The translations under genes and the position numbers were made by a program. From Bacteroidales bacterium (lineage in GTDB: Bacteria > Bacteroidota > Bacteroidia > Bacteroidales > VadinHA17), in contig JBEKDR010000010.1 in NCBI GenBank assembly GCA_050014255.1, positions 587 through 64,586 on the forward strand: a DNA stretch of 64,000 nt. Reading direction: 5' to 3'. Below, one piece after another: positions 1,899 through 61,928 of the stretch (the first letter of the stretch is position 1; every line of letters begins with the position of its first letter). The notes beneath the pieces are model-generated. The model had not been told where the DNA came from. It searched no databases and worked only from the letters and a program-made list of their open reading frames with translations.

Positions 1899-3383
1899 TT
1901 GTCATTGGATATAAACTATTTTCACGTGAAGAAGATTAAATTAGAAAAAGGAATTATCAATCTTATTCTGCCTTTTCGTTTAGGTTCCGAATGGGTATTT
2001 GATCCCTCTGGTATTGACAATGATATCTGGACGAAAACCGATGAGGATATTCCACGACTTGATTTTCTTCTTGAGCATGTTAAAAAGTTCTTTGCTCAGA
2101 ATGTCCAAATAGGGAAGGAGGATGAATCTGCAAGTTTTATAATGAAACTGAAAAATGAGGCTCTTCCTGTTAAAATGTTTAATAATAAAACTTACTGGCT
2201 GAGCAATAAGTCTTTCGATACACAAAATATAAAAAAGAAATTGTTGAAGTTTTCAGTTTATATTGATCCCGGAGAATTCAGAATTATTTTCCATCCATTC
2301 ACAAGAATTGCTATTTTGCTTTTCAGCGTAGAGTTAATTAAATCTGTTAAGAACGATGATCAGCCGAATCTGGCCGACTTCATCGAAATGAATTATCTTC
2401 TGCGATTATTCAACCGGAATGATGAGGCATTTTTCATTTCACAGAATGAGAGAACTGAGGAACGTAGTAAAGCCTCCCTGCTCTTAGTTGATAAAAGCTC
2501 TGATTTGTCCGGTAAAGATGATCCGGGAAAGATTGAACTGACTGGCTGGCGGCCAAGACAATTACTTGATTACCTTCTTCATGGGCTGAATTCCAGATAC
2601 AAAGTTGAATTCTTTGATCATTACCGCTTCTGCCCTGTCTGTTATGTGCAGCCAAAAGAAGAGATCGGGGACGAAGAAATAATCCATCGCGCTTTGTTCT
2701 TCCTGCGAAAGGTATATGATTTTGACTATACACCTGCATCAGATATTCTTCAGCGTGAGGGAGAACTTCTTCATCCGTACAAACAAATCTACTATGCATC
2801 AAGTCTTGAAGGTGCAGTAGTATTTAATAACTGCAGTTCTTCAGACCCTGAATTTATAAAGACCTTTTATTCAAATTCGTTCCATAAAAGCCTTTGGTTG
2901 ACTATCCTTGGCTTCTTACAGCGTTCCATTTTTCTTCAACTTATGAAAGAGGTGTCTGATATTGATCCTGATGACCATCAAAAGGTAAAAGAATACCTCA
3001 GGAGATATACAAGTATATCATTAAAAGCTATTTTTTCGAAAGTATCGGTTTATCACCAGCATAATGATTATTATGATCTTATAATTCATAATCTCCAGAT
3101 AAATGAATTGCAGACCGAGCTAAAAGATGAATTGCACGAACTGAATAATCTGCAACGTCAGTTTCATGAAGATGAGGTAGAAAGGCATGAAGAGATTGAA
3201 AAGCAATATGACAATAAGCTTAATATGATCCTGTTTGCCCTCTCAGTTTTTGGTCTGACACAGGTAACATATGCAGTTATGGCAAACAAAGAATTGCCGC
3301 TTTTTCAGCATGTACTGGCCATGGGTGTACCTATCGTTCTAGGATTGATCTTCTGGAAGACCCTGTTTTTTCGTAAGAAATAA
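1899..3383 (+). CDS. Hypothetical protein, 494 aa: large soluble N-terminal region, long coiled coil, two C-terminal TM helices (CorA-like topology)
   Basis: Long ORF with a non-ATG start (TTG at 1899; the exact start is uncertain). The C-terminus reads LQINELQTELKDELHELNNLQRQFHEDEVERHEEIEKQYDNK (coiled coil), then LNMILFALSVFGLTQVTYAVMA and HVLAMGVPIVLGLIFWKTLFF (two TM helices), then the basic tail RKK. I recognise no family. Confidence 0.65.
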   Translation: MSLDINYFHVKKIKLEKGIINLILPFRLGSEWVFDPSGIDNDIWTKTDEDIPRLDFLLEHVKKFFAQNVQIGKEDESASFIMKLKNEALPVKMFNNKTYWLSNKSFDTQNIKKKLLKFSVYIDPGEFRIIFHPFTRIAILLFSVELIKSVKNDDQPNLADFIEMNYLLRLFNRNDEAFFISQNERTEERSKASLLLVDKSSDLSGKDDPGKIELTGWRPRQLLDYLLHGLNSRYKVEFFDHYRFCPVCYVQPKEEIGDEEIIHRALFFLRKVYDFDYTPASDILQREGELLHPYKQIYYASSLEGAVVFNNCSSSDPEFIKTFYSNSFHKSLWLTILGFLQRSIFLQLMKEVSDIDPDDHQKVKEYLRRYTSISLKAIFSKVSVYHQHNDYYDLIIHNLQINELQTELKDELHELNNLQRQFHEDEVERHEEIEKQYDNKLNMILFALSVFGLTQVTYAVMANKELPLFQHVLAMGVPIVLGLIFWKTLFFRKK

Positions 3384-3464: not shown

Positions 3465-4511
3465 TTATAATGTAATCTCATTTCCTGAAATAGTCATTAT
3501 CATATCTTTAAACTGACTTAGGAGAAGGTGGTAGTTATGAAGGCTTCTGAGGTCACATTTTTCAGTAACCTCTGTTCCGATGTACATCAGATGATCATCC
3601 CTGAATTTGGTGTACATGAAGATATCTTTCTTAATATCAAACTTTTCTTTATTATCAATTATTTCGCAGTTGGTGTCTATTATTAGTGGCGAAAGGTTAA
3701 GATAATCATCCATTGTCTTAAGTGACTTCATAAGCAAAATAGAATGACTTTCAGAATAATTCTCTTCTTCCAGTTCTTTTGCAATAAAATCGGAGTCAGA
3801 GCTATTCAGAATATCCACAACATGGTCGAATTTCGCAGGCTGGTTCTTTGGATGAATAACCTTTATCTCCCGCACAGATACGAGCTTGTATTTGCATAGG
3901 AAAGCAATGCGCTGAAGGATATAAGTAAGTTTTTCTTCATACTCTACACAGCGTCGCTGGATCTCTTCCTGTGTCAGATTTATCTGGTAATGACCCACAT
4001 CATTCCTTTCAGGTACCCAGAAATCGAGAGCAGCAAAGAATCTATTATCAAAGTTTTCTCCCATTTCAGGGAGGAACCAGGGTGATGATTTTTCATTAAT
4101 AAGTCTTCCTATAGCCCTTATAAGCCAGGTATAATTGCCCATACTCAAAACCAGCATTCTGCTCTGGAAATCCTTTGCTACGTTTTCGGAGATTTCAAGT
4201 TTATTCTCCTTTCTATCTTTCCATATCTGGCAGATCATAACGAAACTTATGAACTGCACAGTCCGCTCAATAGTCTTGAATATCTGATCCAGACGCATAC
4301 GATCGGGTTGACGCATCGAGGCAGAGAATAACCTCCGAAGCTCAATTCCAATAGGCCAGGGAAAGTTTTTAATTACCACATCACCAAGCAGACGGGGATC
4401 TAATGTTTCCTCCTCTTCTTCTTCAGCAACCAGCATTTTTTGGAGGGAAGGTTTATAATTCAGCATTTCCTGAAAAACCTTCTTTATGAGAATCTCATTT
4501 GTTGATACCAT
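3465..4511 (-). CDS. Hypothetical protein, 348 aa, with an RNDVGH (Rx4H, HEPN-like) motif and a C-terminal domain that is duplicated as a relic at 1178-1560
   Basis: Clean ATG-started ORF. Codons at 4007-3990 read AGG AAT GAT GTG GGT CAT = R169-N-D-V-G-H174, embedded in a predicted helical region (FFAALDFWVPERNDVGHYQINLTQEEIQRR). There is an acidic run EEEEEE near the N-terminus. Confidence 0.7.
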   Translation of the reverse strand: MVSTNEILIKKVFQEMLNYKPSLQKMLVAEEEEEETLDPRLLGDVVIKNFPWPIGIELRRLFSASMRQPDRMRLDQIFKTIERTVQFISFVMICQIWKDRKENKLEISENVAKDFQSRMLVLSMGNYTWLIRAIGRLINEKSSPWFLPEMGENFDNRFFAALDFWVPERNDVGHYQINLTQEEIQRRCVEYEEKLTYILQRIAFLCKYKLVSVREIKVIHPKNQPAKFDHVVDILNSSDSDFIAKELEEENYSESHSILLMKSLKTMDDYLNLSPLIIDTNCEIIDNKEKFDIKKDIFMYTKFRDDHLMYIGTEVTEKCDLRSLHNYHLLLSQFKDMIMTISGNEITL

Positions 4512-4892
4512 TGTCTGAAATATCAGGAGATAATATTCTAATTGATCTCTATATGATTATTATTTTAATCTAAAGGCATAATTTACAACAAATTTATCTT
4601 TTACACAATAATTTGTAATGGATGGATGTGCAATTGGTTGCTTGTCACTTGTTCATTATAGTGAGTTTTATGATACCCTTATTCATTTCCAAAAATTAGT
4701 TATATTACCCGGAAGTTTTTTTGAATTTGCTTATAAAAACTGATATAATGTCTCAAGAGTTTTATATGGTTCAGGCAGCTGCATGTACTACCTGCACCGA
4801 ATTTGCTGCAAAAAGGGAAAGATAGAGATATTATTTTTTATTTTTGCGGTCGTAAAATGGCTGTTTAATTGGATTTAAATTCTACAAATCAT

Positions 4893-4900
4893 TATTTTTG
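4893..4900 (+). promoter_or_regulatory. Candidate Bacteroidota -7 box (TATTTTTG, fits TAnnTTTG) upstream of the hyf-like operon
   Basis: Exact match to TAnnTTTG ~90 nt upstream of the ATG at 4990. A second identical box lies at 4839-4846. This is a motif match only. Confidence 0.25.
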
Positions 4901-4989
4901 AGCTAGTTACGATTATAAAGATGTTACCTTAAAGAAATTTGCCAGAACCAACCAAGAAAACTATAACGAATTTACTTTAATTACAATTA

Positions 4990-6984
4990 ATGAACAACAC
5001 ATTATTATTTCTTATTTTATTACTCCTGACATTCCCTGTTTTTTTTATCCCCCGGTCACTAAAGTATTTCTATAGCCTTTTTTTGCTTGCAAGTGGAATT
5101 GTACTAAGCTCTATATGGTGTTTTGAATTGGTTTCATCTGATAGACAAATACTTGAAATACAGTTAGTATTGCCCTTCCAGCAAAACAGCTTTGCGTTTA
5201 TAATTGATAAGCTTTCTGCATTCTTCATTGTGGTAATTAATATAACTGTATTTGTTGGGTTTCTTTATGCCTGGGGATATCTGCAACCATATTACAGAAG
5301 CAAAAATGCATTACGTTTTTCGATACATTACTTCTCGTACCTGTGGCTCTACTTCTCTATGATAATGGTAGTTATGATCCGCGATGGCCTGGCTTTTTTA
5401 ATTGTCTGGGAATTGATGGCCCTGTCATCATTTCTTCTTGTGATTTTTGATGCGGAAGACCGCACTATTATGAAAACGGGTATCAGTTACCTTATTCAGA
5501 TGCACGTAGGCATGTTTTTTCTCCTGATAAGCTTTTTAATTGTCGAAAAAGCTACCGGGAGAATGAGTTTTGATGCCCTTGGATCTTATTTCTTAAACCA
5601 CTCTAATTTATTGCTTTTTATCCTCTTCTTTATCGGGTTTGGCATAAAAGCCGGGTTTATTCCCATGCATACATGGCTCCCTGAAGCTCACCCTGCAGCT
5701 CCGTCGCATGTATCTGGAGTTATGTCAGGTGTCATGATAAAAATGGGCATTTATGGTATATTGCGGGTACTTATATCGGTACAAAGCGATTTGCTTTTAA
5801 TTGGTGTGATAATATTAGCGGTTTCGCTGATATCCGGGGTACTAGGTGTGATGATGGCTATCGTTCAGCATGATCTTAAGCGTTTATTGGCATATCATAG
5901 CATTGAGAATATTGGAATCATAGGCATCGGAATTGGTCTGGGCATGATTGGAATATCAACAAATAATACTGCATTAAGTCTGCTTGGCTTCGGTGGAGGT
6001 TTACTTCATGTGATGAATCATTCGCTATTCAAATCGCTTCTTTTCTTTAATGCCGGATCGGTATATCAGGCCACGCATACACGAAACATTGAACAACTTG
6101 GTGGTTTGATGAAGAAAATGCCTTATACTTCGGTTCTCTTCTTAATAGGTTCATTGGCTATCTGTGGCCTGCCTCCCTTTAATGGTTTTATCTCGGAATA
6201 TCTCATCTATATTGGCATGTTTAAAAGCCTGTCGGCGGCTAATCTATATCAATCCATAGTTCTGCTTTCAAGCATTGTCGGACTATCACTTATAGGAGGA
6301 CTGGCAATTTTTTGTTTTACAAAAGCTTTTGGAATAGTATTTCTTGGAGAGCCCCGTTCGGAAAAAGCATCCAGGGCTGAAGAGGTTAGCAAATTAATGA
6401 TTTTTCCTCAATTTATCACAATAGCTTTTATTATGATGATAGGATTAGTGTCTGTCTTCTTTGTGAAACCTGTATTTAACATAGTATACCAGTCATTCAG
6501 AATCCATGATTTGAATCTGGTAGCAGACTCCTCCATAAAGAACCTTACACAAATAAGTATTCTGAGCGGCATTTTTGTTGTCACAATAATTATTTTTCTC
6601 GTTTACAGGCATTTTCATCTTAAGAATAAACAAATTGACATAGGGCCCACATGGGGTTGCGGTTATACAGCCGGAAGCAGTAAACAACAATATACTGCCA
6701 CATCCTATGCATATAATTATAACCATCTGGCAAAGCCGGTGCTCCAGACAAAAAAAATCATGGATGAAATACGCGACGATGAAATATTTCCAGGTAAAAG
6801 GTCCTTTGAGTCGCACAGTGACGATATATTCAAAAAGCTTTTTATTGACAAGCCGATAGATTGGTTTTCAAGCGTTCTTAAAAGGATTGCAGTAATGCAG
6901 ACCGGACAGATTCAACATTACATTTTATATGCATTTGTCTTTATGCTATTTGTCTTCTTATTAACCTATTTTAACCTTATCTGA
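4990..6984 (+). CDS. HyfB/NuoL-like antiporter-type membrane subunit of a group-4-hydrogenase-related (Ehr-like) complex
   Basis: 664 aa and polytopic. It has Mrp/NuoL signatures VWELMALSSFLLV and GIKAGFIPMHTWLPEAHPAAPSHVSGVMSG, plus a HyfB-type C-terminal extension with GPTWGCGYTAG. Confidence 0.85.
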   Translation: MNNTLLFLILLLLTFPVFFIPRSLKYFYSLFLLASGIVLSSIWCFELVSSDRQILEIQLVLPFQQNSFAFIIDKLSAFFIVVINITVFVGFLYAWGYLQPYYRSKNALRFSIHYFSYLWLYFSMIMVVMIRDGLAFLIVWELMALSSFLLVIFDAEDRTIMKTGISYLIQMHVGMFFLLISFLIVEKATGRMSFDALGSYFLNHSNLLLFILFFIGFGIKAGFIPMHTWLPEAHPAAPSHVSGVMSGVMIKMGIYGILRVLISVQSDLLLIGVIILAVSLISGVLGVMMAIVQHDLKRLLAYHSIENIGIIGIGIGLGMIGISTNNTALSLLGFGGGLLHVMNHSLFKSLLFFNAGSVYQATHTRNIEQLGGLMKKMPYTSVLFLIGSLAICGLPPFNGFISEYLIYIGMFKSLSAANLYQSIVLLSSIVGLSLIGGLAIFCFTKAFGIVFLGEPRSEKASRAEEVSKLMIFPQFITIAFIMMIGLVSVFFVKPVFNIVYQSFRIHDLNLVADSSIKNLTQISILSGIFVVTIIIFLVYRHFHLKNKQIDIGPTWGCGYTAGSSKQQYTATSYAYNYNHLAKPVLQTKKIMDEIRDDEIFPGKRSFESHSDDIFKKLFIDKPIDWFSSVLKRIAVMQTGQIQHYILYAFVFMLFVFLLTYFNLI

Positions 6985-6986
6985 AT

Positions 6987-7898
6987 ATGTTAGGATTTGT
7001 TCTGATTCTAATTGTAGCTTTCTTTTTTCCAGGTGTTATATTACGAACAAAAAGCATTTTTTCAGGTCGTAAAGGGCCGGGCATACTTCAACCTGTCAAG
7101 GATATTGGTGTTTTAATGAGAAAAGGAAGCGTTTTCAGTAAGACAACGGGAATAATATTTCAGATGGCACCTGTTGTTGCATTGTCAGCTATTTTGTGTG
7201 CTTTACTGGTGATCCCATTCGCAAATCAGAGTGCAATTATTTCATTTGAAGGAGATTTTGTTTTCTTCTCTTATCTGCTCGCATTCGGAAAGTTTTTTAC
7301 TATTCTTGCTGCTCTCGATACAGGTAGCAGCTTCGAGGGAATGGGGGCTAATCGTGAAGCATTCTTCTCGATGCTGATAGAACCGGCTTTTTTTATTTTG
7401 CTGGCTACTTTTGCAATGTTCACCGGGTTTACTTCTTTCTCAGATATCTTTAATCATTTCTTTCTTACAGGAAACAATTATGTGTTGATATACAGTATAT
7501 TAGGATTTTATTTGTTTATTCAAATTGCTATGATCGAGAACAGCAGGCTACCTGTTGATGACCCGAAAACACATCTCGAACTCACGATGATACATGAAGT
7601 GATGATCCTGGACAATAGTGGTTTTGATAAAGCATTAATTCATATTGGTTCATACCTGAAATTTGCAATTTATGGTTTATTGATGTATAATGTTATAGTG
7701 CCAGCCAGATGGAACATATTTCTGCAAACTGTTTTATTCCTGGTAGTTCAGGTGGTATTTGCCATGATCATTGGACTGATTGAATCATTCAGGGCCAGAA
7801 ACAAGATGAATAAAAATCCAAAATTCATTCTTTCAATCTCAGCAATTGCATGGATCGCTTTTGTGATAATTTTAATATTAACGGATAAATTAATTTAA
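6987..7898 (+). CDS. HyfC/HycD/NuoH-like membrane subunit
   Basis: 303 aa and polytopic. It starts 3 nt after the preceding stop. It contains GSSFEGMGANRE and a RLPVDDPKTHLELTM loop typical of HycD/NuoH-type subunits. Confidence 0.8.
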   Translation: MLGFVLILIVAFFFPGVILRTKSIFSGRKGPGILQPVKDIGVLMRKGSVFSKTTGIIFQMAPVVALSAILCALLVIPFANQSAIISFEGDFVFFSYLLAFGKFFTILAALDTGSSFEGMGANREAFFSMLIEPAFFILLATFAMFTGFTSFSDIFNHFFLTGNNYVLIYSILGFYLFIQIAMIENSRLPVDDPKTHLELTMIHEVMILDNSGFDKALIHIGSYLKFAIYGLLMYNVIVPARWNIFLQTVLFLVVQVVFAMIIGLIESFRARNKMNKNPKFILSISAIAWIAFVIILILTDKLI

Positions 7899-7905
7899 AT
7901 ACAAT

Positions 7906-8520
7906 ATGGTAAATTACCTGATAGTATTATTTGCAATTACCCTGGTTTATTTTTGCTCTGCGGAGCGATTAATCATATGTATCAAACTGATTGGGATCCA
8001 GGGCCTAATACTGTGCGGAATTGCATTATTTGAGCTTAAAGAAATCAATACTGCAAATCTTCTGTTTATTGCTTCCGAAACGTTGATTTTTAAAACAATA
8101 TTAATTCCGTACCTGCTTTTTCGGATAATTAACCGGTCTGGTGTATCTAAAATTCACCGGCAGGCGATGCCGGGATTTTATTTAATCATATTATCAATTT
8201 TCGCATTGTTGATAAGCGTTCTTCTGGCAAACTCCCTGATAAATAATTATATAAATACGATTTATATGGCTATTGCTCTTTTTACTCTTTTCACAGGACT
8301 TTTGCTTATAGTAACTCACAAACTGATAATCTCCCATTTGATAGGGTTTTTAATTATTGAAAATTCGGTTTTTATGTTTTCTATTGCTGTCGGAAATAAA
8401 ATGCCAATGCTGATCAACGTTGGAATATTGCTGGACATTTTTGTGGGAGTATTAATACTTGGTTTTTTTGGATTGCGACTTAAACCGCACACTAACGAAT
8501 TAACCATGTTAAAAGATTAA
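7906..8520 (+). CDS. HyfE-like small membrane subunit
   Basis: 204 aa, about 6 TM helices, with a GFLIIENSVFMF motif (HyfE-type ENG/ENS helix). Its position between the HyfC-like and HyfF-like genes matches hyf operons. Confidence 0.7.
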   Translation: MVNYLIVLFAITLVYFCSAERLIICIKLIGIQGLILCGIALFELKEINTANLLFIASETLIFKTILIPYLLFRIINRSGVSKIHRQAMPGFYLIILSIFALLISVLLANSLINNYINTIYMAIALFTLFTGLLLIVTHKLIISHLIGFLIIENSVFMFSIAVGNKMPMLINVGILLDIFVGVLILGFFGLRLKPHTNELTMLKD

Positions 8521-8526
8521 AAGATT

Positions 8527-9951
8527 ATGCTTTTGTTATTTTTTATTATTTCAGCCATTTCAGCTATCTCAATAGTCTTACTAAAGAACAAAACTATAAC
8601 TAAGATTATAACAATCTTCTATGCATTAGTACATATTTGGTTTACAATATATTGCTGGAACAACTTAAACAAAACCGAATTGAGTTATTTCACTTTTAAC
8701 GGCCCTGGTGTGTTACTTCTTTCAGTTTTGTCATTTTTAGCTCTGCCAACTATTTATCATGGATTTATATATGCAGCCGGGGACGAGGTGAAGAAATTTA
8801 ATATTTACCACGCCGCATTGATAGCTTTAATAACTTTTATGTCAGGTGCATACATGGCAAACGGAATGACGGTCCTTTGGATTTTTGTAGAAGCTACAAC
8901 CCTTGCCGTTGCAGCTCTTATATATCATGATCGTACCGAAATGGCATTGGAAGCAACATGGAAGTATGTGTTTATCTGTTCCACCGGTATAGCTCTGGCC
9001 TATTTGGGCATTTTATTTTTAGGATTTATTTACGGCCGTGGAGATGCCGCGAATCTGTCATTTACATCATTAGCCAATATTATTAATGAAGCTAATCCGA
9101 TGTACCTGAAAATTGCATTTATATTTGTCTTAGTTGGCTTTAGCACAAAGATGGGGCTTTTTCCCATGCATACGGTAACAATTGATGCTCATTCTGTCGC
9201 TCCACCTCCTATCAGTGCTTTGATCTCGACCACTTTAATGAACGTTGGCTTTTTGGCTATTTTCAGAGTTTATTATATGTTTTCTTCGTCCTCAATATTT
9301 AATTTTATGAATCATGTTTTGATCCTGTCGGGATTGTTGTCTTTGTTGATAGCTGCTGGTTATATGCTTAAAGCAAAACATCTTAAGAGAATGCTTGCTT
9401 ATTCAAGTCTTGAAAATATGGGACTGGTAGCTATTGCGATAGGAGTAGGAGGCGCGGGTTATTTCGCAGCATTTTTTCTGCTGGTACTTCATTCTTTATC
9501 CAAATCAAGTCTTTTTTATCAAATGGGTCAGCTTTCAAGGGTACTCCATACTTTCAAATTAGATGAATCTGGCAGATATATGGAACTTTATCCAGCAGGT
9601 GCTTTAGTACTTATTACCGGAATGTTCTGCATACTTGCCATTCCTCCGTCAGGATTATTTATTAGTGAGTTTATGATATTTAAAGCAATGGTTTTCAAAA
9701 ACCTGTGGTTTGTACTTTGTGCTGTAATATTACTGCTGTGCTTTGTGATTTACGCCATGAGTACCAGAATTATGCATATTGTATTTTCTAATCCCCGGAT
9801 CGAAAACAATCAAAAATCCCCGGAAAAAATTAGTCCGGTTGAGACTGTAAGTCAATTTATATTTCTTGTTGTTGTGATCATTATGTGTTTCTATCAACCT
9901 CCCTTTTTGGTGGATCTTATTAACCAGAGTATTTCCATTTTTACTAAATAG
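8527..9951 (+). CDS. HyfF/NuoN-M-like antiporter-type membrane subunit
   Basis: 474 aa and polytopic. It has the signatures WIFVEATTLAVAALIY, STKMGLFPMHTVTIDAHSVAPPPISALIS and KRMLAYSSLENMG. Confidence 0.85.
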   Translation: MLLLFFIISAISAISIVLLKNKTITKIITIFYALVHIWFTIYCWNNLNKTELSYFTFNGPGVLLLSVLSFLALPTIYHGFIYAAGDEVKKFNIYHAALIALITFMSGAYMANGMTVLWIFVEATTLAVAALIYHDRTEMALEATWKYVFICSTGIALAYLGILFLGFIYGRGDAANLSFTSLANIINEANPMYLKIAFIFVLVGFSTKMGLFPMHTVTIDAHSVAPPPISALISTTLMNVGFLAIFRVYYMFSSSSIFNFMNHVLILSGLLSLLIAAGYMLKAKHLKRMLAYSSLENMGLVAIAIGVGGAGYFAAFFLLVLHSLSKSSLFYQMGQLSRVLHTFKLDESGRYMELYPAGALVLITGMFCILAIPPSGLFISEFMIFKAMVFKNLWFVLCAVILLLCFVIYAMSTRIMHIVFSNPRIENNQKSPEKISPVETVSQFIFLVVVIIMCFYQPPFLVDLINQSISIFTK

Positions 9952-9959
9952 ACATTATC

Positions 9960-11480
9960 ATGGATCAAAAACCATATATAGAAATAAAAAACAATTCATT
10001 ATCAGAAGAAATTGACGAAATACCGGTTTTAAAATATGATAAATTTTATGATCAGGTTGTCGGGTTTTTAAAAGATGAAGCAAAACATTGTATAGCCTAT
10101 TACTGTTTCGAGTCATCGGATAAACTGAAATTTTTTTGTTGCATAGCAGATGACAATGAGAGTAGCATTGCAATATTCGCGCACGAGCTTAATAAGGATC
10201 AACGAAGATTAATATCTCTTACTCCTATATGTCCTCCGATTCATATTTTTGAACGCGAGATTCATGAAAATTCCGGAGTAGAATTCGAAGGTCATCCATG
10301 GCTGAAGCCCATAAGATATTCATATAACCGGATAGACAAATCAAAGATTATGGATAATTATCCTTTCTATAATATTGATAGTGAAGAATTGCATGAGGTG
10401 GGCGTTGGACCTGTTCATGCCGGTTTAATTGAGCCGGGTCATTTCAGGTTTATCTGTAACGGTGAAAAGGTTCTGCATCTTGAAATTCAACTTGGATACC
10501 AACATCGTGGAATTGAAGAGTTGTTTATTACAAAAAATACTCCATTACAGAGATGTATTCTTTCAGAGAGTATAGCTGGTGATTCTTCAGTTGGACATGC
10601 ATTGGCTCACTCACAGCTTATTGAGTCGTTAATTGGGATGGAAGCAGATGAAAAATTACAGGTAGAGCGATGTATTGCCCTGGAATTGGAAAAGCTGGCT
10701 GTTTGTATCGGCGATACTGCTGCTTTATGTGGCGATGTTGCTTATCAGCTTGGGCAAGTAGCCTGTGAAGCGCTCAGAACTACAATAATCAACACCACTC
10801 AACTTTGGTGTGGGAATCGCTTCGGCAAGGGCCTTGTCCGCCCAGGTGGCAGTAATTACCCCCTTGGTAATGATATAGCTGATGAGATATTAAAAATACT
10901 TGATAATTCAGGCGAACGGTTTAGTAAGATTGCCGATCGTGTCTATTCCCTGCCAAGTGTTCTTTCACGGTTTGATGATATCGGAATACTTACGAAACAA
11001 CAAGGTTTGGCAATTGGTGTCGTAGGTCCATCTGCTCGATCCTCCGGTATTTTGCGTGATGTGCGCAATACGCATCCGTTTCAATATTATAAAAAGTATT
11101 CCTTAAAACCGATAGTACTTGAAACTGGTGATGTACTTGCCCGTGGAATGATGCGTTGTCTTGAAGCCAGTGAATCGGTGAAAATCATTCGTGAACTTAT
11201 TGAAATTTGGCGCAAGAAAACTAGTAATAGTGAAAAACCGGTTTATGATTATAAGCTAAAACCCAATCGCTTTGCCATTTCGATGGTCGAAGGCTGGAGG
11301 GGTGAAATCTGCCACCTGGCTACCACTGATAAAAATGGAAATATCAGCAAGTACAAAGTGAAAGATCCTTCAATGCACAATTGGATGGCACTTGCACTTG
11401 CAGTACGTAATCAGGAAATATCGGATTTCCCGATTTGCAACAAAAGTTTTAACCTGAGCTATTGCGGGCATGATTTATAA
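9960..11480 (+). CDS. HycE/HyfG-like (NuoC-NuoD fusion) large subunit lacking the NiFe-binding cysteine pairs
   Basis: 506 aa with GVGPVHAGLIEPGHFRFICNGEKVLHLEIQLGYQHRGIE, typical of group 4 large subunits. The L1 position reads SESIAGDSSVGHALAH (nt 10566-10598) where hydrogenases have E-R-x-C-G-x-C-x-x-x-H. The C-terminus is FPICNKSFNLSYCGHDL instead of DPCxxCxxR. Confidence 0.85.
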   Translation: MDQKPYIEIKNNSLSEEIDEIPVLKYDKFYDQVVGFLKDEAKHCIAYYCFESSDKLKFFCCIADDNESSIAIFAHELNKDQRRLISLTPICPPIHIFEREIHENSGVEFEGHPWLKPIRYSYNRIDKSKIMDNYPFYNIDSEELHEVGVGPVHAGLIEPGHFRFICNGEKVLHLEIQLGYQHRGIEELFITKNTPLQRCILSESIAGDSSVGHALAHSQLIESLIGMEADEKLQVERCIALELEKLAVCIGDTAALCGDVAYQLGQVACEALRTTIINTTQLWCGNRFGKGLVRPGGSNYPLGNDIADEILKILDNSGERFSKIADRVYSLPSVLSRFDDIGILTKQQGLAIGVVGPSARSSGILRDVRNTHPFQYYKKYSLKPIVLETGDVLARGMMRCLEASESVKIIRELIEIWRKKTSNSEKPVYDYKLKPNRFAISMVEGWRGEICHLATTDKNGNISKYKVKDPSMHNWMALALAVRNQEISDFPICNKSFNLSYCGHDL

Positions 11481-11504
11481 ATCATTTATTGACAGTTTGT
11501 TACG

Positions 11505-12260
11505 ATGTTTAAAGAGGTAAAAGTATTGGTTAGTCACGGTCGACAGTATATAAAGAATTTACGTGCTCAAAATGTTTCGGACCTGTTCATGGGTCGTCCT
11601 GTAATTTCAGAAAATATTACAGATGAAGAAATAAAAGCCGTTTCCGAATTGTGTCCTGTAAAAGCCATTGATAGTAAATCAGGTTCAATAGATTTGGGAA
11701 AATGCATATTTTGCAAAGAATGTCACTTCATGTTGCCTCAAAGGATAGTGTTTACAAATGACTACCGTATTGCAGGAAACAGCCGTGAAGGACTAATTAT
11801 TAACCCTGGAGTTGAAAATCCCGTCAGACTTGATGAAACTCAGGTAAGAAGTGAAATAAGGAAACTTTTTAAAGGCGCATTAAAGCTTCGCGAGGTATCT
11901 GCCGGAGGAGATAATTCCTGCGAAATTGAACTAGCCGCTACCGGGAATGTAAATTTCGATATGGGACGTTATGGAATTGAATTTGTTGCATCTCCACGTC
12001 ATGCTGACGGGATCGTAATTACCGGCCCCATCTCCGGGAATATGGCTGAACCACTTGAGATTACTTATAAAGCAACTCCTTCACCTAAAATCATCATTCT
12101 TGCCGGTACTGATGCTATCAGCGGAGGTATCTTTGAAGGCAGCCCTGCTCTTGACAGAAGATTTATTGAACAAAATCATATAGATCTTTACCTACCAGGA
12201 AACCCGGTCCATCCGCTTACATTTATTAATGGCGTATTGGATCTGCTGGGGATAAAGTAG
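11505..12260 (+). CDS. HyfI/HycG/NuoB-like small subunit fused to a ferredoxin remnant; proximal-cluster cysteines largely lost
   Basis: 251 aa. The NuoB-like core is YGIEFVASPRHADGIVITGP. The cluster motifs read AGGDNSC (11901-11921), AGTDAISGG (12102-12128) and LPGNPV (12192-12209), so 1 of 4 Cys is retained. The N-terminal part has CP...CIFCKEC (11652-11723). Confidence 0.8.
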   Translation: MFKEVKVLVSHGRQYIKNLRAQNVSDLFMGRPVISENITDEEIKAVSELCPVKAIDSKSGSIDLGKCIFCKECHFMLPQRIVFTNDYRIAGNSREGLIINPGVENPVRLDETQVRSEIRKLFKGALKLREVSAGGDNSCEIELAATGNVNFDMGRYGIEFVASPRHADGIVITGPISGNMAEPLEITYKATPSPKIIILAGTDAISGGIFEGSPALDRRFIEQNHIDLYLPGNPVHPLTFINGVLDLLGIK

Positions 12261-12274: not shown

Positions 12275-12352
12275 CCTGCGCCCTGCGCCCTACGCCCTGC
12301 GCCCTGTGCCCTGCGCCCTACGCCCTGTGCCCTACGCCCTGCGCCCTGCGCC
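12275..12352. repeat. Tandem heptamer array (CCCTGCG and variants CCCTACG/CCCTGTG), about 11 copies
   Basis: Read directly: cctgcgccctgcgccctacgccctgcgccctgtgccctgcgccctacgccctgtgccctacgccctgcgccctgcgcc. It fills most of the 93-nt spacer between convergent stops at 12260 and 12354. The minus strand reads (GGGNNNN)n. Confidence 0.95.
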
Positions 12353-18306: not shown

Positions 18307-18356
18307 TTCTCTTGGATAACTCCTGTACTTTAAATAAATTCCTTATGTTATTTAAT

Positions 18357-18496
18357 GTTGCTCGTTGCTAGTTCCTTGTTACCAGTTTCTTGTTTCTTGC
18401 ACTTACAAGTTTCTTTTTACTTTTATCTTTTTACTTTTGTCTTTTGTCTTTGACTAACCAGCAACCAGCAACCAGCAACCAGCAACCAGCAACCAG
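18357..18496. repeat. Phase-locked array of 20 heptamers in three blocks: (GTTNNNN)x6, 2 transitional, (CTTTTNN)x6, (CAACCAG)x6
   Basis: Parsed by hand from 18357: gttgctc gttgcta gttcctt gttacca gtttctt gtttctt gcactta caagttt cttttta cttttat cttttta cttttgt cttttgt ctttgac taaccag caaccag x5. It lies between the DUF47 stop (18504) and the PiT start (18306). Confidence 0.9.
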
Positions 18497-21783: not shown

Positions 21784-22860
21784 GTGAGAAACTTTTTTAT
21801 AGCAACATTTTTGCTGATAACATCAACATCATTTGCTCAAGCAGACAGTAGTAAATCTTCACTTACGTTATCAGGTTACACTGAAGTGTATTATAGTTAT
21901 GATTTCGGAAATCCCGGTAATCACGAGCGACCATCTTTCTTTTACAATTTCAACAGACATAATGAAGTGAATCTGAATCTTGGGTTCATCAATGCGAGTT
22001 ATGCTACAAAAAATGTCCGGGCAAATTTCGGATTGATGGAGGGAACCTGGGCTCAGTATAACTCATCTGCAGAACAACCCTTACTCAAAAATTTATGGCA
22101 GGCAAATGTTGGGGTGAAATTGTCCAAAAAGAAAAATTTCTGGTTAGATGCAGGAGTATTTCCATCACATATTGGATTTGAAAGTCCTATTGGAAAAAGT
22201 TGCGATGCACTTACACGTTGCATTATAGGCGACAACACACCAAGTTGGGAAAGTGGAATTAAAATTGGTTACACATCCGACAACGGAAAATGGTTTCTCT
22301 CTGGATTAGTTGTGAATGGCTGGCAGAGGATTGCTCGTGTCAATGGAAACAATACCCCTGCTTTCGGAACACAAATTACATTTACTCCAAACGGGAAAGT
22401 TACATTTAACTATAGCACATTTATCGGAAATGATAAACCGGAGAGTGTTTCTCAAATGCGCTACTACCATAATTTCTACGCATTACTTAATGCAACAGAT
22501 AAATTCAGGATCACCCTAGGTTTTGATTATGGCATGGAACAAATAAGTAAAGGCAGCAGTAAGTATAACACACTATACAGCCCTGTAATGATTTTTCGCT
22601 ATCAGTGCTGTAATAAGCTGGCAGTTGCTATACGAGGAGAATATTATAATGACAAAAATGGAATTATCATTACCACAGGCACTCCCAACGGATTCCAAAC
22701 TTTCGGTTATTCATTAAATTTCGATTACAAAATTAGTGACAATGTAATGTGGCGAATAGAAGGAAGGGGACTTAGCAGCAAAGACAAGATATTCACCTTA
22801 GACAATAAAGTTTCCAATCAAAACTATTTTGTGACTACATCATTAGCTATTGCTTTTTAA
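21784..22860 (+). CDS. Outer-membrane beta-barrel porin associated with the kdp locus
   Basis: It has the signal peptide MRNFFIATFLLITSTSFAQA, an alternating beta-strand pattern, a C-terminal aromatic residue (LAIAF) and a GTG start. Porin genes of this type accompany kdp operons in Bacteroidota (from memory). Confidence 0.6.
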   Translation: MRNFFIATFLLITSTSFAQADSSKSSLTLSGYTEVYYSYDFGNPGNHERPSFFYNFNRHNEVNLNLGFINASYATKNVRANFGLMEGTWAQYNSSAEQPLLKNLWQANVGVKLSKKKNFWLDAGVFPSHIGFESPIGKSCDALTRCIIGDNTPSWESGIKIGYTSDNGKWFLSGLVVNGWQRIARVNGNNTPAFGTQITFTPNGKVTFNYSTFIGNDKPESVSQMRYYHNFYALLNATDKFRITLGFDYGMEQISKGSSKYNTLYSPVMIFRYQCCNKLAVAIRGEYYNDKNGIIITTGTPNGFQTFGYSLNFDYKISDNVMWRIEGRGLSSKDKIFTLDNKVSNQNYFVTTSLAIAF

Positions 22861-23059
22861 TGAACAACAAACAATATGACCATTGCACTGCAGATAGGAA
22901 TAGTTAAGTACAAAGAGCATCATTTCATTGAACCTTATAATTTTTTACTTTGTCATACCTTTTTATCTTAAATTTATAGTTCCTGAAAATATAAATGTGT
23001 TCTTTAAAATTTTTATATCTCTTCATTGTTTTTTTATAATTTCTTTATATCCTGCTGCT

Positions 23060-23067
23060 TATTTTTG
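23060..23067 (+). promoter_or_regulatory. Candidate -7 box TATTTTTG (TAnnTTTG) for the kdpFABC operon
   Basis: Exact motif match 25 nt upstream of the ATG at 23092. Confidence 0.3.
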
Positions 23068-23091
23068 CAACATGATCAAAACAGAAACAAA

Positions 23092-23256
23092 ATGAAAACA
23101 AAAATTGCAAAATCTTTTATGTCTCTTGCAGTTGTACCTGTTCACTCTGATGCAGCTGTCTCTAATAGTCCTTTAAGTTACCTTATCGGAGGTATTATAG
23201 CCCTGCTTATATTGGGTTATTTAATATACACTTTATTACGTCCTGATAAATTTTAA
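23092..23256 (+). CDS. kdpF: K+-transporting ATPase subunit F (KdpF) with N-terminal extension
   Basis: The C-terminal 28 aa LSYLIGGIIALLILGYLIYTLLRPDKF match the KdpF single-TM peptide. It ends 12 nt before kdpA. The start is uncertain (ATG 23092 or 23119). Confidence 0.65.
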   Translation: MKTKIAKSFMSLAVVPVHSDAAVSNSPLSYLIGGIIALLILGYLIYTLLRPDKF

Positions 23257-23268
23257 TACTTCGAAAAC

Positions 23269-24954
23269 ATGAATGAAGCGATTCAATTAGTCCTTTTCCT
23301 GGTATTACTGGCCGTGTTATCGCCATTGTTAGGTAAATACATGGCAAAGGTCTTCATGGGTGAAAAACATCTTATAAAGCCGGTTTTTGGCTGGCTTGAA
23401 AAACTTGTTTACAGAGCATTAGGAATCAAAAGCGAGGAGGAAATGAACTGGAAGACCTATATGTTTGGAGTCCTTCTTTTCAACCTGTTTGGCTTCGTAT
23501 TTTTGTTTCTTTTGCAAATGGTGCAGGCATATCTGCCTCTGAACACGGAGAAATTGCCAAATGTCTCATGGCATCTTGCATTCAATACTGCTATGAGTTT
23601 CACAACTAACACTAACTGGCAGTCATACAACGGTGAAAATACATTGAGTTACCTGGTACAGATGTTAGGGTTGACTGTTCAGAATTTTGTCAGTGCAGCA
23701 ACCGGTATTGCTGTTGTTCTGGCCCTGATACGCGGGTTGACCCGTAAAACAACTGATGCTCTGGGTAATTTCTGGGCTGATATGACACGGAGCGTGCTTT
23801 ATGTACTGTTACCACTCGCAATTATTCTAAGTATTGCTTTGGTTGGACAGGGAGCAGTACAGACATTTTCACATTATGTCAAAGCAACCACTTTACAGGG
23901 ACCTGAACAGATTATTCCGCTTGGTCCGGCTGCATCGCAAATTGCAATTAAACAACTAGGTACAAACGGAGGTGGCTTCTTTGGTGCAAACAGTGCACAT
24001 CCCTTCGAAAATCCAACGCCATTTTCCAACTTTCTGGAAATGTTTGCCCTTATAATAATATCAGCCGGTTTAGTTTTTACTTTCGGATATTATATGAAAT
24101 CCAAACGCCAGGCACGTGCAATATTTATTACAATGTTTATCCTCTTTGCGGTAGGCATTGCAATATCTCTCTGGTCTGAATACAGTCATAACAATGTATT
24201 GAATGTCTCTGGTGCAATGGAAGGAAAAGAGACCCGTTTTGGAGTAATGAACAGCATCCTGTGGTCAGTTACTACAACAGTTACATCAAATGGTTCAGTT
24301 AATGCCATGCATGATAGTTTATCACCATTGTCAGGATTGGTAGCGATGTTCAACCTGATGCTGGGTGAAATCATTTTTGGAGGTGTAGGATCGGGATTAT
24401 ATGGGATAATTATCTTTATCATACTTACTGTTTTTATTGCAGGACTAATGGTTGGCCGTACTCCGGAGTACCTGGGTAAAAAGATTGAAGCCTATGAGAT
24501 GAAAATGGCCATTCTGGCAGTTTTAGCTCCCAGTATCGTCATCAAATTATTTTCAGCGATTGCTTGCTCGGTACCTGCAGGATTATCAAGTCTTAATAAT
24601 GCGGGGCCCCATGGTCTTTCAGAAATATTATACGCATTCAGTTCGGCTGCCGGGAATAATGGCAGCGCTTTTGGAGGGCTTAACGCAAACACCGTTTTTT
24701 ATAACCTTATGATCGGATTCGGAATGCTGATAGGCCGTTTTGGAATAATCGTTCCTGTAATGGCTATCGCAGGAAGCATGGCTAAGAAAAAGATTACCCC
24801 GGTTTCTTCGGGCACTTTCAGGACTGACAACTGGTTATTTGTTATGTTATTGATAAGTGTTATTCTTATTGTTGGAGGATTGACCTTTTTTCCTCCTCTG
24901 GCCCTTGGTCCTATAGTCGAGCATTTCTTAATGAATCTGGGTGTTACTTTTTAA
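23269..24954 (+). CDS. kdpA: Potassium-transporting ATPase subunit A
   Basis: 561 aa. It contains typical KdpA segments (NTNWQSYNGENTLSYL, QLGTNGGGFFGANSAHPFENPT, GRTPEYLGKKIE). Confidence 0.95.
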   Translation: MNEAIQLVLFLVLLAVLSPLLGKYMAKVFMGEKHLIKPVFGWLEKLVYRALGIKSEEEMNWKTYMFGVLLFNLFGFVFLFLLQMVQAYLPLNTEKLPNVSWHLAFNTAMSFTTNTNWQSYNGENTLSYLVQMLGLTVQNFVSAATGIAVVLALIRGLTRKTTDALGNFWADMTRSVLYVLLPLAIILSIALVGQGAVQTFSHYVKATTLQGPEQIIPLGPAASQIAIKQLGTNGGGFFGANSAHPFENPTPFSNFLEMFALIIISAGLVFTFGYYMKSKRQARAIFITMFILFAVGIAISLWSEYSHNNVLNVSGAMEGKETRFGVMNSILWSVTTTVTSNGSVNAMHDSLSPLSGLVAMFNLMLGEIIFGGVGSGLYGIIIFIILTVFIAGLMVGRTPEYLGKKIEAYEMKMAILAVLAPSIVIKLFSAIACSVPAGLSSLNNAGPHGLSEILYAFSSAAGNNGSAFGGLNANTVFYNLMIGFGMLIGRFGIIVPVMAIAGSMAKKKITPVSSGTFRTDNWLFVMLLISVILIVGGLTFFPPLALGPIVEHFLMNLGVTF

Positions 24955-24972
24955 TTTTTAAAAATTAATAGT

Positions 24973-27060
24973 ATGGAAAAACGAAATATGAATCTGTTTA
25001 CCAGGGAAATTGGTTTACAGGCATTAAAAGATTCTTTTATAAAGTTGAATCCGGCAGCTCTCATAAAAAACCCGGTTATTTTCATCGTCGGAATAGGGGC
25101 ACTTATAACAACTGTGGTTGTATTTGCTGATGTTTTAAAGAGTCACTTTTCTAACTTTGACCTTCAGATCACACTCTGGCTTTGGTTTACTGTCTTGTTT
25201 GCTAATTTTGCAGAAGCCGTTGCTGAAGGTCGTGGAAAGGCTCAGGCAGATAGTTTACGCAAAAGCCGTACTCTGACAAAAGCCCGTAAGCTGGTTCATA
25301 AGAAAGAGGAAATTGTTTTGGCTACTGATCTGAGAAAAGGAGATATCGTCATTTGCGATGCAGGAGAGATTATTCCTGCAGATGGAGATGTAATCGATGG
25401 AATTGCGAGTGTTGATGAATCGGCTATTACGGGTGAATCAGCGCCTGTAATCCGTGAAAGCGGTGGCGATCGTTGTGCTGTGACTGGAGGCACTAAAGTT
25501 ATCAGTGACCAGATTACCATTAAAATAACTTCTGAACCAGGGTTTACATTTTTAGACCGTATAATTGCTTTGGTGGAAGGAGCTAAGCGTCAGAAAACGC
25601 CGAATGAAATTGCATTGATTATCCTTCTGTCGGGTCTTACTATTATCTTCCTTTTAGTAGTTGTTGCTTTGCCGGCTTATTTTGGTTATAGTCTGAAAGC
25701 TTCAGGTGTATCAGCAAATCATAACCTCACTTTGCCTGTACTGATTTCTCTTCTTGTCTGTCTTATTCCCACAACAATCGGAGGTTTGTTGAGTGCTATT
25801 GGTATAAGTGGAATGGACAGACTATTAAGGAAGAATGTTATTGCAACCAGCGGGAAAGCTATAGAAGCAGCAGGAGATACTGATGTACTTCTTCTTGACA
25901 AAACAGGAACTATCACATTAGGAAACCGGATGGCCACTGAGTTTATTCCGGCAGAAGGCTCTACGGTCGAGCAACTGGCCGATGCTTCTCAATTAGCATC
26001 ACTTGCTGATGAAACGCCGGAAGGACGATCGATTGTAGTGTTAGCCAAAGAGCAGTTTAATATCAGGGCGAGAGAGATGCAAAGTTTGGATACGGTATTT
26101 ATCCCATTTACTGCACAGACAAGTATGAGTGGAATAGATTTAAAAAGTCCCGATGGTCAGCTTCGTAGTATCCGGAAAGGATCTTCTTCTGCAATAAGAA
26201 AATTCATTGAAAACAATAATGGATTTTTCCCAAAAAACGTGGAAGAAATTGTTTACGATCTCTCCCGTCAGGGTGCCACACCACTGGTTGTTGCAGAAAA
26301 TAATCAGGTACTAGGTGTCATTCACCTAAAGGATATAGTGAAGGGAGGTATCAAGCAGCGTTTTGCTCAACTCCGGATGATGGGTATCCGTACAATTATG
26401 ATCACAGGCGACAATCCACAAACTGCTGCTGCGATAGCTGCTGAGTCCGGTGTCGATGACTTTCTGGCTGAAGCAAAACCTGAAGACAAACTCCACAGGA
26501 TAAGAGAAGAACAGACTAATGGTCATCTTGTTGGAATGATAGGCGATGGCACAAATGACGCACCTGCCCTGGCCCAGGCTGATGTTGGCCTGGCGATGAA
26601 TACAGGTACACAGGCTGCCCGTGAAGCAGGGAACATGGTTGACCTGGATAGTAACCCCACCAAACTAATTGAAGTAGTTGAAACAGGTAAACAATTGCTG
26701 ATGACCCGTGGTGCTCTGACTACATTCAGTATTGCGAATGATGTTGCTAAATATTTTGCCATAATTCCAGCTATAGCTACATTATTATATGTAACATCAT
26801 CAGGAGTAGCTCCTTTAAGTGTTCTCAATATAATGAAACTTACTTCTCCTGAAAGTGCTATATTAAGTGCGGTCATATTCAATGCCTTAATCATTGTGGC
26901 TCTTATTCCGCTTGCCCTGCGGGGAGTTAAATACAGGCCAATATCAGCTAACAGGGTTCTTGCACTGAATATTGTTATCTATGGCATAGGAGGAATTATA
27001 GTTCCGTTTATAGGAATCAAGCTGATCGATATGCTGCTTGTTTCCATACACATGATTTAA
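24973..27060 (+). CDS. kdpB: Potassium-transporting P-type ATPase subunit B
   Basis: 695 aa. It has the DKTGTIT phosphorylation motif, the TGDN and [10 protein letters not shown] hinge motifs and the TGES actuator motif. Confidence 0.95.
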
Positions 27061-27095
27061 AAATCATAACAATTAATAAATTTGTAGAGATTATT

Positions 27096-27668: not shown

Positions 27669-27702
27669 GGCAGAAAACTGATAATCGCTAAAGTACTTCA
27701 TC

Positions 27703-28593: not shown

Positions 28594-28599
28594 GATTAT

Positions 28600-31272: not shown

Positions 31273-31283
31273 ACCACTGATAA

Positions 31284-52486: not shown

Positions 52487-52600
52487 ATCCCGGTTTATTA
52501 GGTTTTATTTATCAGGCTATTCTAACGAAAACAAATGATCAACTTTATATCAGGAAAAGTTTAGTAGTTCACTAAGTTAATATTTTTTTTCTTTTCCAGA

Positions 52601-55423: not shown

Positions 55424-55436
55424 GATAGAGAATTTA

Positions 55437-58352: not shown

Positions 58353-58507
58353 TTACTAAAAATACATTAATTATTAGTAGAAAACAATAGAAAGCTACCA
58401 CTTCTTTCTTCGCCACAAAGACGCCAAGGCGCGAAGAATCATCGAGCATAAGTATTGATTCCTGTTCTTTCTTGTTTTTGCGAAAGACGTTCTGCTGAAC
58501 CCCGGGG

Positions 58508-58539: not shown

Positions 58540-58607
58540 TTATCTTGATTTATTCAGGCAGGTTTGTGCCCTGGTTCCAATGAAAATAAAGTTGAATTTT
58601 TCTCTGA

Positions 58608-61919: not shown

Positions 61920-61928
61920 AAGAAAGCT

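Follow-up and report, generated by a model that had tools for sequence, protein, structure and literature searches.

Complexes of the Ehr type (short for energy-converting hydrogenase related) are homologues of group 4 [NiFe] hydrogenases without the NiFe cysteines, and are associated with NuoH-like and Mrp/NuoL-like subunits. The class was reportedly founded by comparative genomics in the work of Marreiros and co-workers, about 2013. It is used in several studies and in HydDB (PMC6349859, PMC10284858, PMC7304191, PMC5037454), and its members are treated as non-hydrogenases of unknown function (PMC6349859, PMC10284858, PMC7304191, PMC6728331, PMC5037454). We found no structural or functional study of any Ehr in the accessible literature. 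In this study, we analysed a six-gene, hyf-like cassette at positions 4990-12260 (+ strand) of a 64,000-nucleotide stretch of a Bacteroidales genome, hereafter the window. A preliminary description of this DNA had assigned the cassette to the Ehr class and had stated that no role has been shown for that class, in agreement with the literature (PMC6349859, PMC10284858, PMC6728331). We found that the encoded complex has a Cys-less large subunit, that its small subunit retains only one of three [4Fe-4S] sites, and that the former proximal cluster site has become a near-fixed Asp/Ser/Asp/Asn site, while the membrane arm and its coupling loops are intact. The one-cluster state, its single origin, the Asp/Ser/Asp/Asn site and a three-cluster sister form are undescribed in the accessible literature, outside which the 2013 founding paper lies. 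The Ehr class is already known and the one-cluster state is apparently new, although it may have been mentioned earlier.

The six genes are co-directional, with spacers of 2, 7, 6, 8 and 24 nucleotides (nt), and encode in order HyfB-, HyfC-, HyfE-, HyfF-, HyfG- and HyfH/I-like proteins; open reading frames (ORFs), strand, coordinates and spacers are exactly as first described. The first gene (4990-6984) codes for a HyfB/HycC/NuoL-like antiporter-like subunit of 664 amino acids (aa), with a Proton_antipo_M domain (PF00361, 1e-52) and a match to NCBIfam hydrogenase 4 subunit B (3e-163). It is followed by genes for a HyfC/HycD/NuoH-like subunit of 303 aa (6987-7898; NADHdh, PF00146, 2e-28) and for a small HyfE-like membrane subunit of 204 aa (7906-8520), which has no Pfam match and resembles the NCBIfam hydrogenase 4 membrane subunit (9e-13). 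The second antiporter-like subunit, of HyfF/NuoN type and 474 aa (8527-9951), again carries Proton_antipo_M (PF00361, 4e-40) and matches hydrogenase 4 subunit F (2e-70). The peripheral arm comprises a fused NuoC+NuoD/HycE-like large subunit of 506 aa (9960-11480; Complex1_30kDa, PF00329, and Complex1_49kDa, PF00346) and a small subunit of 251 aa (11505-12260), in which a HyfH remnant is fused to a HyfI/HycG/NuoB-like domain (Oxidored_q6, PF01058, 5e-18; NuoI-type match for residues 57-100). The best NCBIfam matches are thus hydrogenase-4 subunits B, E and F together with NuoD and NuoB, and all of them score under the curated cutoffs, which indicates that the six proteins are divergent.

Among solved structures, the large subunit matches HycE (7z0s_E, 7e-35) and MbhL (3e-29), and it was aligned with E. 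coli HycE (7Z0S) and P. furiosus MbhL (6CFW). At the L1 motif, RVCGICGFAH of HycE is aligned to SIAGDSSVGH, with A206 and S209 in place of the two cysteines and the histidine retained as H213. The former NiFe motif now reads IAGDSSVGH (I205-H213, 10572-10598) and contains a new invariant residue, D208. At L2, DPCYSC of HycE is aligned to NLSYCG, within the stretch NLSYCGHDL (N498-L506, 11451-11477); the cysteines are replaced by S500 and G503, and an unrelated cysteine, C502, lies one position off. Neither motif retains a CxxC pair, which bears out the preliminary claim that the NiFe ligands are lost. None of the four ligand cysteines occurs in any of 79 orthologues. Within this Bacteroidota family, E158, D208, L499, S500, Y501, G503 and D505 are found in 79/79 sequences, H213 in 77/79 and C502 in 70/79. 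The protein stops three residues past G503 and therefore offers a maturation protease no C-terminal extension to cleave. The beta1-beta2 loop, GVGPVHAGLIEPGHFR (G148-R163, 10401-10448), which includes E158 and was delimited by alignment with the loops of HycE, MbhL and Nqo4, is almost invariant and ranks among the most conserved stretches of the large subunit in the 79 orthologues. Tyr87 and His38 of T. thermophilus Nqo4, the quinone ligands of complex I, align with A206 and I157 and are not kept.

These features are shared far beyond the window. An exhaustive search of 1.84 billion representatives (50% identity) with the large subunit returned 548 matches at E<=1e-30, the best 150 of which were classified. 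Only six of these best 150 of 548 have all four NiFe cysteines (ERICGxC...ELCYSCxDR), at 33-35% identity, and most of the others share with the window protein the Cys-less signature [AS]GD[ST]xxxxH ... NKSFxLSY[CSA]GxDL. By this signature, the large subunit is a typical member of a large Cys-less Ehr superfamily, of which D208 is a hallmark. The assignment to Ehr proposed beforehand holds: the protein is a group 4 hydrogenase homologue without NiFe cysteines, and it is encoded together with NuoB-, NuoH- and NuoL/M/N-like subunits.

The small subunit matches MbhJ (2e-21) and HycG (2e-19) among solved structures. The four proximal-cluster cysteines of these proteins align with D136, C139, D203 and N233, three of the four cysteines being lost. 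This former proximal (N2-type) site (11910-12203; D136-N-S138-C139 at 11910-11921, D203 at 12111-12113, N233 at 12201-12203) reads D/x/D/N in 72 of 74 genome-locus orthologues, with C139 variable (46/74). The distal-cluster ligand positions are now hydrophobic (V/T, gap/A/I, L/V, F/L), and the segment that formerly bound this cluster is poorly conserved across the 74 orthologues. On the other hand, the N-terminal HyfH remnant has a complete four-Cys motif (11652-11723), made up of C50-P51 (11652-11657) and C67-I-F-C70-K-E-C73 (11703-11723), that is, CP plus CxxCxxC. In the 2x[4Fe-4S] ferredoxin fold, each cluster is bound by three cysteines of one motif and the "CP" cysteine of the other; C50, C67, C70 and C73 would thus form one complete [4Fe-4S]-type site. 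It is kept in 74/74 genome-locus orthologues, in 123/123 proteins of a second set and in 193/193 proteins of the set used for the tree described below. In alignments, this segment corresponds to motif 2 of NuoI/TYKY, and its pattern recurs, in a weak match (E 0.011), in the LctC ferredoxin domain 7qh2_A, which we believe carries a single cluster. An AlphaFold2 model of the small subunit has a predicted local distance difference test (pLDDT) score of 92.4, with 96-98 over the four-Cys domain, and a predicted template modelling score (pTM) of 0.89. In Foldseek, its C-terminal half superposes on MbhJ, HycG and NuoB (template modelling (TM) score 0.84 for HycG and MbhJ), and the search with the whole model recovered this NuoB-like half only, with nothing for the N-terminal domain.

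The window protein therefore has the ligand pattern TIVL/CCCC/DCDN at the distal, medial and proximal sites. Since two of the three [4Fe-4S] sites are lost, the predicted electron wire no longer runs unbroken from the surface facing the cytoplasm into the pocket of the former active site. The ligand alignments show this whichever cluster label applies; of the NuoI assignment, the cluster order N5-N6a-N6b-N2 is the sole part confirmed from the literature. The preliminary description had stated that the complex has lost its redox-cofactor ligands and has no visible redox input. The loss stands for the NiFe ligands and for three of the four proximal cysteines, but not for the four-Cys site kept in all 193 proteins. 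Likewise, an isolated [4Fe-4S]-type site remains as far as redox input is concerned, although both its neighbours in the wire are gone.

Close relatives of the cassette retain the whole set of clusters. All 12 cluster cysteines are present in two genome loci, L043 and L060, and in 97 of the 120 closest relatives of the L043 small subunit. In this three-cluster form, a full two-cluster HyfH-like domain is fused to a four-Cys HyfI domain, and the partner large subunit is Cys-less in the four readable cases (L043, L060, L081 and L083). A neighbour-joining tree of 193 small-subunit proteins, built with all 12 ligand columns masked, contains one split that separates 95/95 one-cluster proteins from 97/97 three-cluster proteins. 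Hence, the cluster loss defines one clade and arose once. The window falls within the one-cluster form by its fused HyfH-HyfI protein, its retained CP...CxxCxxC motif, its hydrophobic distal positions and its proximal D/x/D/N. In the one-cluster clade, D136 is found in 86/95, S138 in 84/95 and D203 and N233 in 95/95 proteins, whereas the three-cluster clade has C, G, C and C at these positions in 97/97 (G in 89/97). Fixed differences that discriminate the clades are limited to the proximal ligands and S138; no such position was found in the large subunit. Compensating basic residues, sought as a mark of simple cavity filling at the Asp/Asp/Asn site, are fixed in neither subunit. As read from these alignments, the proximal ligands have become a near-fixed, uncompensated Asp/Ser/Asp/Asn site. 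Of note, one protein (P0206, on a 3-kb contig of Joint Genome Institute (JGI) sample 3300050046) keeps the distal and medial four-Cys sites and has a proximal site that is already DCDN. This intermediate falls with the one-cluster clade in the tree, which suggests that the proximal cluster was lost first.

In the membrane arm, the closest solved relatives of the HyfB- and HyfC-like subunits are HycC (7z0s_C, E 7e-68) and HycD (7z0s_D, E 9e-24). The motifs VWELMALSS, GIKAGFIPMHTWLPEAH, FVEATTLAV and STKMGLFPMHT, quoted earlier as signs of retained ion translocation, are all found in the translations, and the canonical charged residues are ~100% conserved in 65-69 orthologues per subunit. Specifically, E141, K220, K251, K348 and E403 of the HyfB-like subunit are invariant in 65 orthologues, and E58, K63, E152 and D177 of the HyfE-like subunit in 69. 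E122, K208 and K326 of the HyfF-like subunit are conserved in 100% and E381 in 98% of 67 orthologues. The E-channel and TM5-6 loop of the HyfC-like subunit (E184-D209, 7536-7613) contains nine residues conserved in all 66 orthologues (E184, R187, D191, D192, H196, E198, H203, E204 and D209). These data show that the membrane arm and the coupling loops are intact.

The cassette is also widespread. The large subunit comprises more than 120 clusters at >=68% identity, the named ones mostly from Bacteroidales metagenome-assembled genomes, and relatives of the cassette occur in at least 590 genomes, counted at species level, from Bacteroidales, Rikenellaceae, Prolixibacteraceae, Cytophagales, Saprospiraceae, Chitinophagales, Flavobacteriales and Sphingobacteriales. 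Arcticibacter eurypsychrophilus MJ9-5 is a cultured carrier of the one-cluster form. The order of a ~665-aa antiporter-like, the NuoH-like, the HyfE-like, a ~475-aa antiporter-like, the large- and the small-subunit gene is found in ~70 of 80 loci. An extra HyfB-like antiporter-like gene of ~670 aa precedes the first one in 15 loci (L030, L041, L049, L056, L057, L059, L063, L072, L074, L075, L078, L079 and L080, and the truncated L052 and L076), and in two further loci (L039, 10001-19508; L048, 10007-20295) the large-subunit gene has been relocated ahead of the other five. Median ratios of nonsynonymous to synonymous substitution rates (dN/dS) are 0.095, 0.068, 0.050 and 0.063 for the HyfB-, HyfC-, HyfE- and HyfF-like subunits and 0.086 and 0.083 for the large and small subunits, figures that are approximate because dS is partly saturated. 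Since the cassette occurs in at least 590 genomes in a fixed order, with dN/dS of 0.05-0.10 and ~100% conservation of the charged residues, the complex is, judged by its sequences, functional, under strong purifying selection and no relic.

To look for genes linked to the cassette, we clustered the 1303 ORFs of 80 genome loci. Apart from the cassette's own genes, each family was confined to 11 of the 80 loci at most, and none of these families is a redox protein. Only one functional neighbour recurs, a SulP/STAS anion transporter, found in some clades (9/80 loci). In Cytophagales, Cyclobacteriaceae and Saprospiraceae loci, its gene is the first or second one downstream of the small-subunit gene and has the same orientation; the two overlap by 4 nt in L038, and SulP has kept this downstream position in the rearranged loci L039 and L048. 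In a Draconibacterium locus, SulP is upstream of the cassette on the opposite strand, and in a three-cluster locus on an Ignavibacteriaceae contig (L081, 1009-10750), SulP/STAS and then an HTH+PTS_EIIA_2 (helix-turn-helix) gene directly precede the cassette on the same strand. A Chitinophagales locus has a borderline STAS-only protein after the cassette. The window itself has no SulP gene, and we regard the linkage as a lead, not as proof. A Pro_CA-like ORF beside SulP in L034 was sub-threshold (E 1e-4), had by inspection no CxDxR/HxxC zinc motifs and was not used as evidence. In Cytophagales and Cyclobacteriaceae, a family of ~113-125-aa proteins without Pfam match, absent from the window, borders the cassette or separates it from SulP (L030, 2551-2919; L046, 4572-4913 and 12429-12797; L048, 17502-17879; L049, 2576-2938); they share a hydrophobic helix at the N terminus and an acidic central part, and their C-terminal ends are alike. 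Other recurrent neighbours, namely a GH109-like oxidoreductase, gamma-glutamyltranspeptidase (GGT), PHO4/PhoU_div and an M49 peptidase, reflect local synteny among close relatives and were rejected as partners. No partner was found beside the three-cluster cassettes, whose neighbours are an aquaporin, an M20 peptidase, an ornithine carbamoyltransferase (OTCase), CstA, OEP and an aldehyde dehydrogenase. Finally, the reported absence of maturation, formate dehydrogenase and HyfA/HycB genes holds for the scanned ORFs of the 64-kb window (>=80 aa up to 20 kb and >=120 aa beyond, ORFs nested in longer ones excluded), among which there is no hyp, hycI, fdhF or hycB/hyfA.

The reading that we favour, at a probability of roughly 0.4, is that the complex is a redox-independent ion translocator in which the old hydrogenase arm would serve as a structural or regulatory cap. 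We favour it because the wire is broken, linked redox partners are lacking, the machine is otherwise unaltered and an ion gradient may be linked to SulP. No electrons would pass along the chain, and the complex would act as a secondary ion translocator involved in cation/proton exchange or in the control of ion leak. Ions would be carried by the two antiporter-like subunits and by the HyfC/HyfE channel. The former hydrogenase arm may cap them and hold or regulate a coupling network formed by E158, D208, H213, Y501 and D505 of the large subunit, Asp136/Ser138/Asp203/Asn233 of the small subunit and the acidic HyfC loop. The one [4Fe-4S] cluster that is left might be structural, or a sensor of redox state or O2, and in some clades the ion gradient may serve the adjacent SulP-type anion symporter.

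Several observations weigh against this proposal. No Ehr has experimental evidence for any function. Mrp antiporters work without a peripheral arm and have MrpE/F/G, which are absent from the cassette. The pocket residues and the four-Cys site are much more strictly conserved than a passive cap should apparently require, and the 12 cysteines kept in 97/97 proteins of the sister clade indicate that the ancestral machine probably used electrons. Moreover, nothing else was altered when the two clusters were lost, which would suit a function that still needs the remaining one. By the Nqo9 ligand assignments (C63 with C98/C101/C104 for N6b), the retained cluster would presumably be the neighbour of the proximal site. 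The SulP link is missing from the window and from most loci (9/80). A further proposal, a 'complex I without electrons', would have proton or cation binding at the Asp/Ser/Asp/Asn site replace the electron as the charge change that drives or gates the coupling network and the antiporter-like subunits, at the position where complex I and hydrogenases have the charge-switching N2/proximal cluster, with wiring to SulP in some lineages; we consider it improbable. If it were true, the three-cluster sister would provide a natural electron-driven control.

The complex might still be a redox pump with a shortened wire, in which the [4Fe-4S] cluster takes single electrons from a housekeeping ferredoxin or flavodoxin and passes them to menaquinone or a small molecule, bound where the proximal cluster used to be, among D136, S138, D203 and N233. 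The four cysteines kept in 193/193 proteins, the polar, near-fixed and non-random residues at the ex-proximal site, the occurrence of the CP...CxxCxxC pattern in the LctC ferredoxin domain of 7QH2 and the possibility that ferredoxin-like donors are encoded elsewhere are all in its favour. However, the quinone ligands of complex I are gone (Tyr87 to A206, His38 to I157), the ex-distal segment is so poorly conserved that no conserved docking surface is evident, and redox genes are linked in none of the 80+ loci. We also know of no precedent for a fully Cys-ligated cluster that forms a catalytic pair with carboxylates beside it. Thus, we hold such a pump to be unlikely, albeit deserving of some weight. 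The flow of ions might instead drive non-redox chemistry or binding at the pocket or at the Asp/Asp/Asn site, by analogy with DAB2 and CupA, for instance of an anion or inorganic carbon in conjunction with SulP. Antiporter-like modules that power non-redox chemistry have precedent (PMC13144422, PMC6981117), the former NiFe site carries an invariant D208 throughout the superfamily, the acidic site that replaces N2 is uncompensated, and SulP/STAS is linked in several independent arrangements. On the other side, the cassette encodes no carbonic-anhydrase-like or other catalytic domain, no metal-binding motif is demonstrable, and SulP is missing from the window and most loci, which makes this gradient-driven machine doubtful.

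Two other readings can be largely set aside. The best PDB and NCBIfam matches are subunits of formate hydrogenlyase (FHL) and Hyf, as would be expected of a genuine group 4 [NiFe] hydrogenase or formate hydrogenlyase-type enzyme. Nonetheless, the CxxC pairs of L1 and L2 and the proximal four-Cys site are gone, NiFe cysteines occur in 0/79 orthologues, there is no C-terminal extension, the scanned window ORFs include no hyp, hycI or fdhF, and the nearest true hydrogenases, whose motif differs, are at 33-35% identity. Hydrogenase identity is refuted at the sequence level; the ligand alignments show that the product of the locus cannot be a [NiFe] hydrogenase, and we leave this option virtually no weight. 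A decaying, non-functional remnant of a hydrogenase operon would account for the lost cofactor ligands and for the scores under the NCBIfam cutoffs, but six intact ORFs, dN/dS of 0.05-0.10, invariant replacement residues and at least 590 genomes with a fixed order speak against decay. The selection data refute this reading, which we judge extremely improbable. What probability remains is left to functions beyond those considered.

Some further features of the window deserve mention. Two TAnnTTTG boxes (4839-4846 and 4893-4900, + strand) lie 151 and 97 nt 5' of the first ATG of the cassette. As pattern matches to the -7 consensus of Bacteroidetes promoters, they are candidate Bacteroidota-type promoter elements. 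Sigma-70 promoter and terminator scans were not usefully above shuffled expectation, no Rfam element or riboswitch was found 5' of the cassette at E<=1 in 4300-5200, and the whole window has no Rfam match at gathering score. Downstream, 11.1 tandem copies of the GC-rich heptamer CCTGCGC (12275-12352), the strongest array of the window (Tandem Repeats Finder (TRF) score 121), occupy the interval between the stop codons of the small-subunit and gamma-glutamyltranspeptidase genes, which converge here; this array is not present in 84 related loci. Directly upstream of the cassette lie two ORFs without Pfam or NCBIfam match, of 494 aa (1899-3383, +) and 348 aa (3465-4511, -), at the position where close relatives carry a GH109/Gfo-Idh-MocA oxidoreductase with a twin-arginine translocation (TAT) signal. 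Elsewhere, the window contains Kdp/KdpDE, PHO4/PhoU_div, GGT, TonB-dependent receptor and sugar metabolism genes. Between the PHO4 transporter and PhoU_div genes (18356-18496), there are several adjacent heptamer arrays, of TGTTGCT (x6.3), TCTTTTG (x5.7) and AACCAGC (x5.9, at 100% identity). A complete Kdp potassium-uptake locus, with a BBP2 porin, KdpA, KdpB, KdpC, a 4HB/HAMP protein, the sensor kinase KdpD and a response regulator, occupies 21784-31967, ~9.5 kb 3' of the cassette. At 49598-63911 (-), three tandem TonB-dependent receptor genes, each with a short array of the hexamer AGGTTG, are followed by two genes for FG-GAP/ASPIC-UnbV proteins.

How a charge change next to N2 is coupled to ion pumping is debated for complex I and for membrane-bound hydrogenases. 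The two sister forms are a matched natural pair, the same six-subunit machine with and without two iron-sulfur clusters, and allow one to ask whether such machines need electrons and what replaces them; a cultured host exists. In addition, the database labels 'hydrogenase 4' and 'NADH-quinone oxidoreductase subunit C' mislead metabolic reconstructions of Bacteroidota.

The closest solved relatives of the complex are those of E. coli hydrogenase-4/FHL (Hyf, Hyc; 7Z0S), with HycC (7e-68), HycD (9e-24), HycE (7e-35) and HycG (2e-19). The cassette follows the Hyf subunit order hyfB-C-(D)-E-F-G-(H)-I and has the same antiporter and E-channel residues. Unlike Hyf and FHL, it has no NiFe site, proximal cluster, HyfA, HyfD, HyfJ, FdhF or maturation genes, and all that is left of HyfH is a one-cluster domain joined to HyfI. 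Complex I and the MBS/MBX complexes of Pyrococcus (6U8Y) also combine a hydrogenase-derived arm, in which the NiFe site has been replaced, with ion translocation, as the cassette appears to do. However, they keep the proximal/N2 cluster and the full electron wire, and complex I also has the Tyr/His quinone ligands, none of which the cassette retains. The cassette further differs from MBS/MBX by the loss of two clusters and by its six subunits, compared with a set of ~13 that includes an Mrp module. With respect to complex I, the N2 ligands are lost, the quinone Tyr and His are replaced, one HyfE-like protein stands where complex I has NuoA, NuoJ and NuoK, and the NuoI-like domain has one cluster instead of two and is fused to the NuoB-like domain. 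The alignments show that the features of the quinone site and of N2 by which complex I is defined are missing from the predicted product.

Mrp Na+/H+ antiporters (6Z16, 7QRU, 7D3U), the model for the translocator proposed above, work without redox chemistry, and their antiporter-like subunits are homologous to those of the cassette and share the Glu/Lys signatures. They are built of seven subunits (MrpA-G), with MrpB/C/E/F/G and without a NuoH-like subunit or a peripheral arm, whereas the cassette has two PF00361 proteins, a NuoH-like and a HyfE-like subunit and a two-protein peripheral arm, and lacks MrpE/F/G and a fused MrpA C-terminal domain; no further small membrane ORFs were found in it. 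Complex-I-type proton-conducting subunits coupled to non-redox chemistry are known from DAB2 (DabAB; PMC13144422) and from CupA of the cyanobacterial NDH-1MS complex (PMC6981117). These systems have a carbonic-anhydrase-like subunit with a Zn site, and the cassette encodes none comparable. Within the Ehr class, the 'FDH-Ehr' proposed for Margulisbacteria has an FdhA/NuoEF partner that the window cassette is without. Compared with known Ehr complexes, the cassette stands out by its HyfH-HyfI fusion, by the loss of the proximal and one ferredoxin-type cluster and by the retention of a single one. A close counterpart is the three-cluster sister from Bacteroidota and Ignavibacteriota (for instance L043, L060, L081 and L083), which matches it in its six genes and their order, in the Cys-less pocket and in the fusion of the small subunit, and differs in that all 12 cysteines of the distal, medial and proximal clusters are kept in 97/97 proteins.

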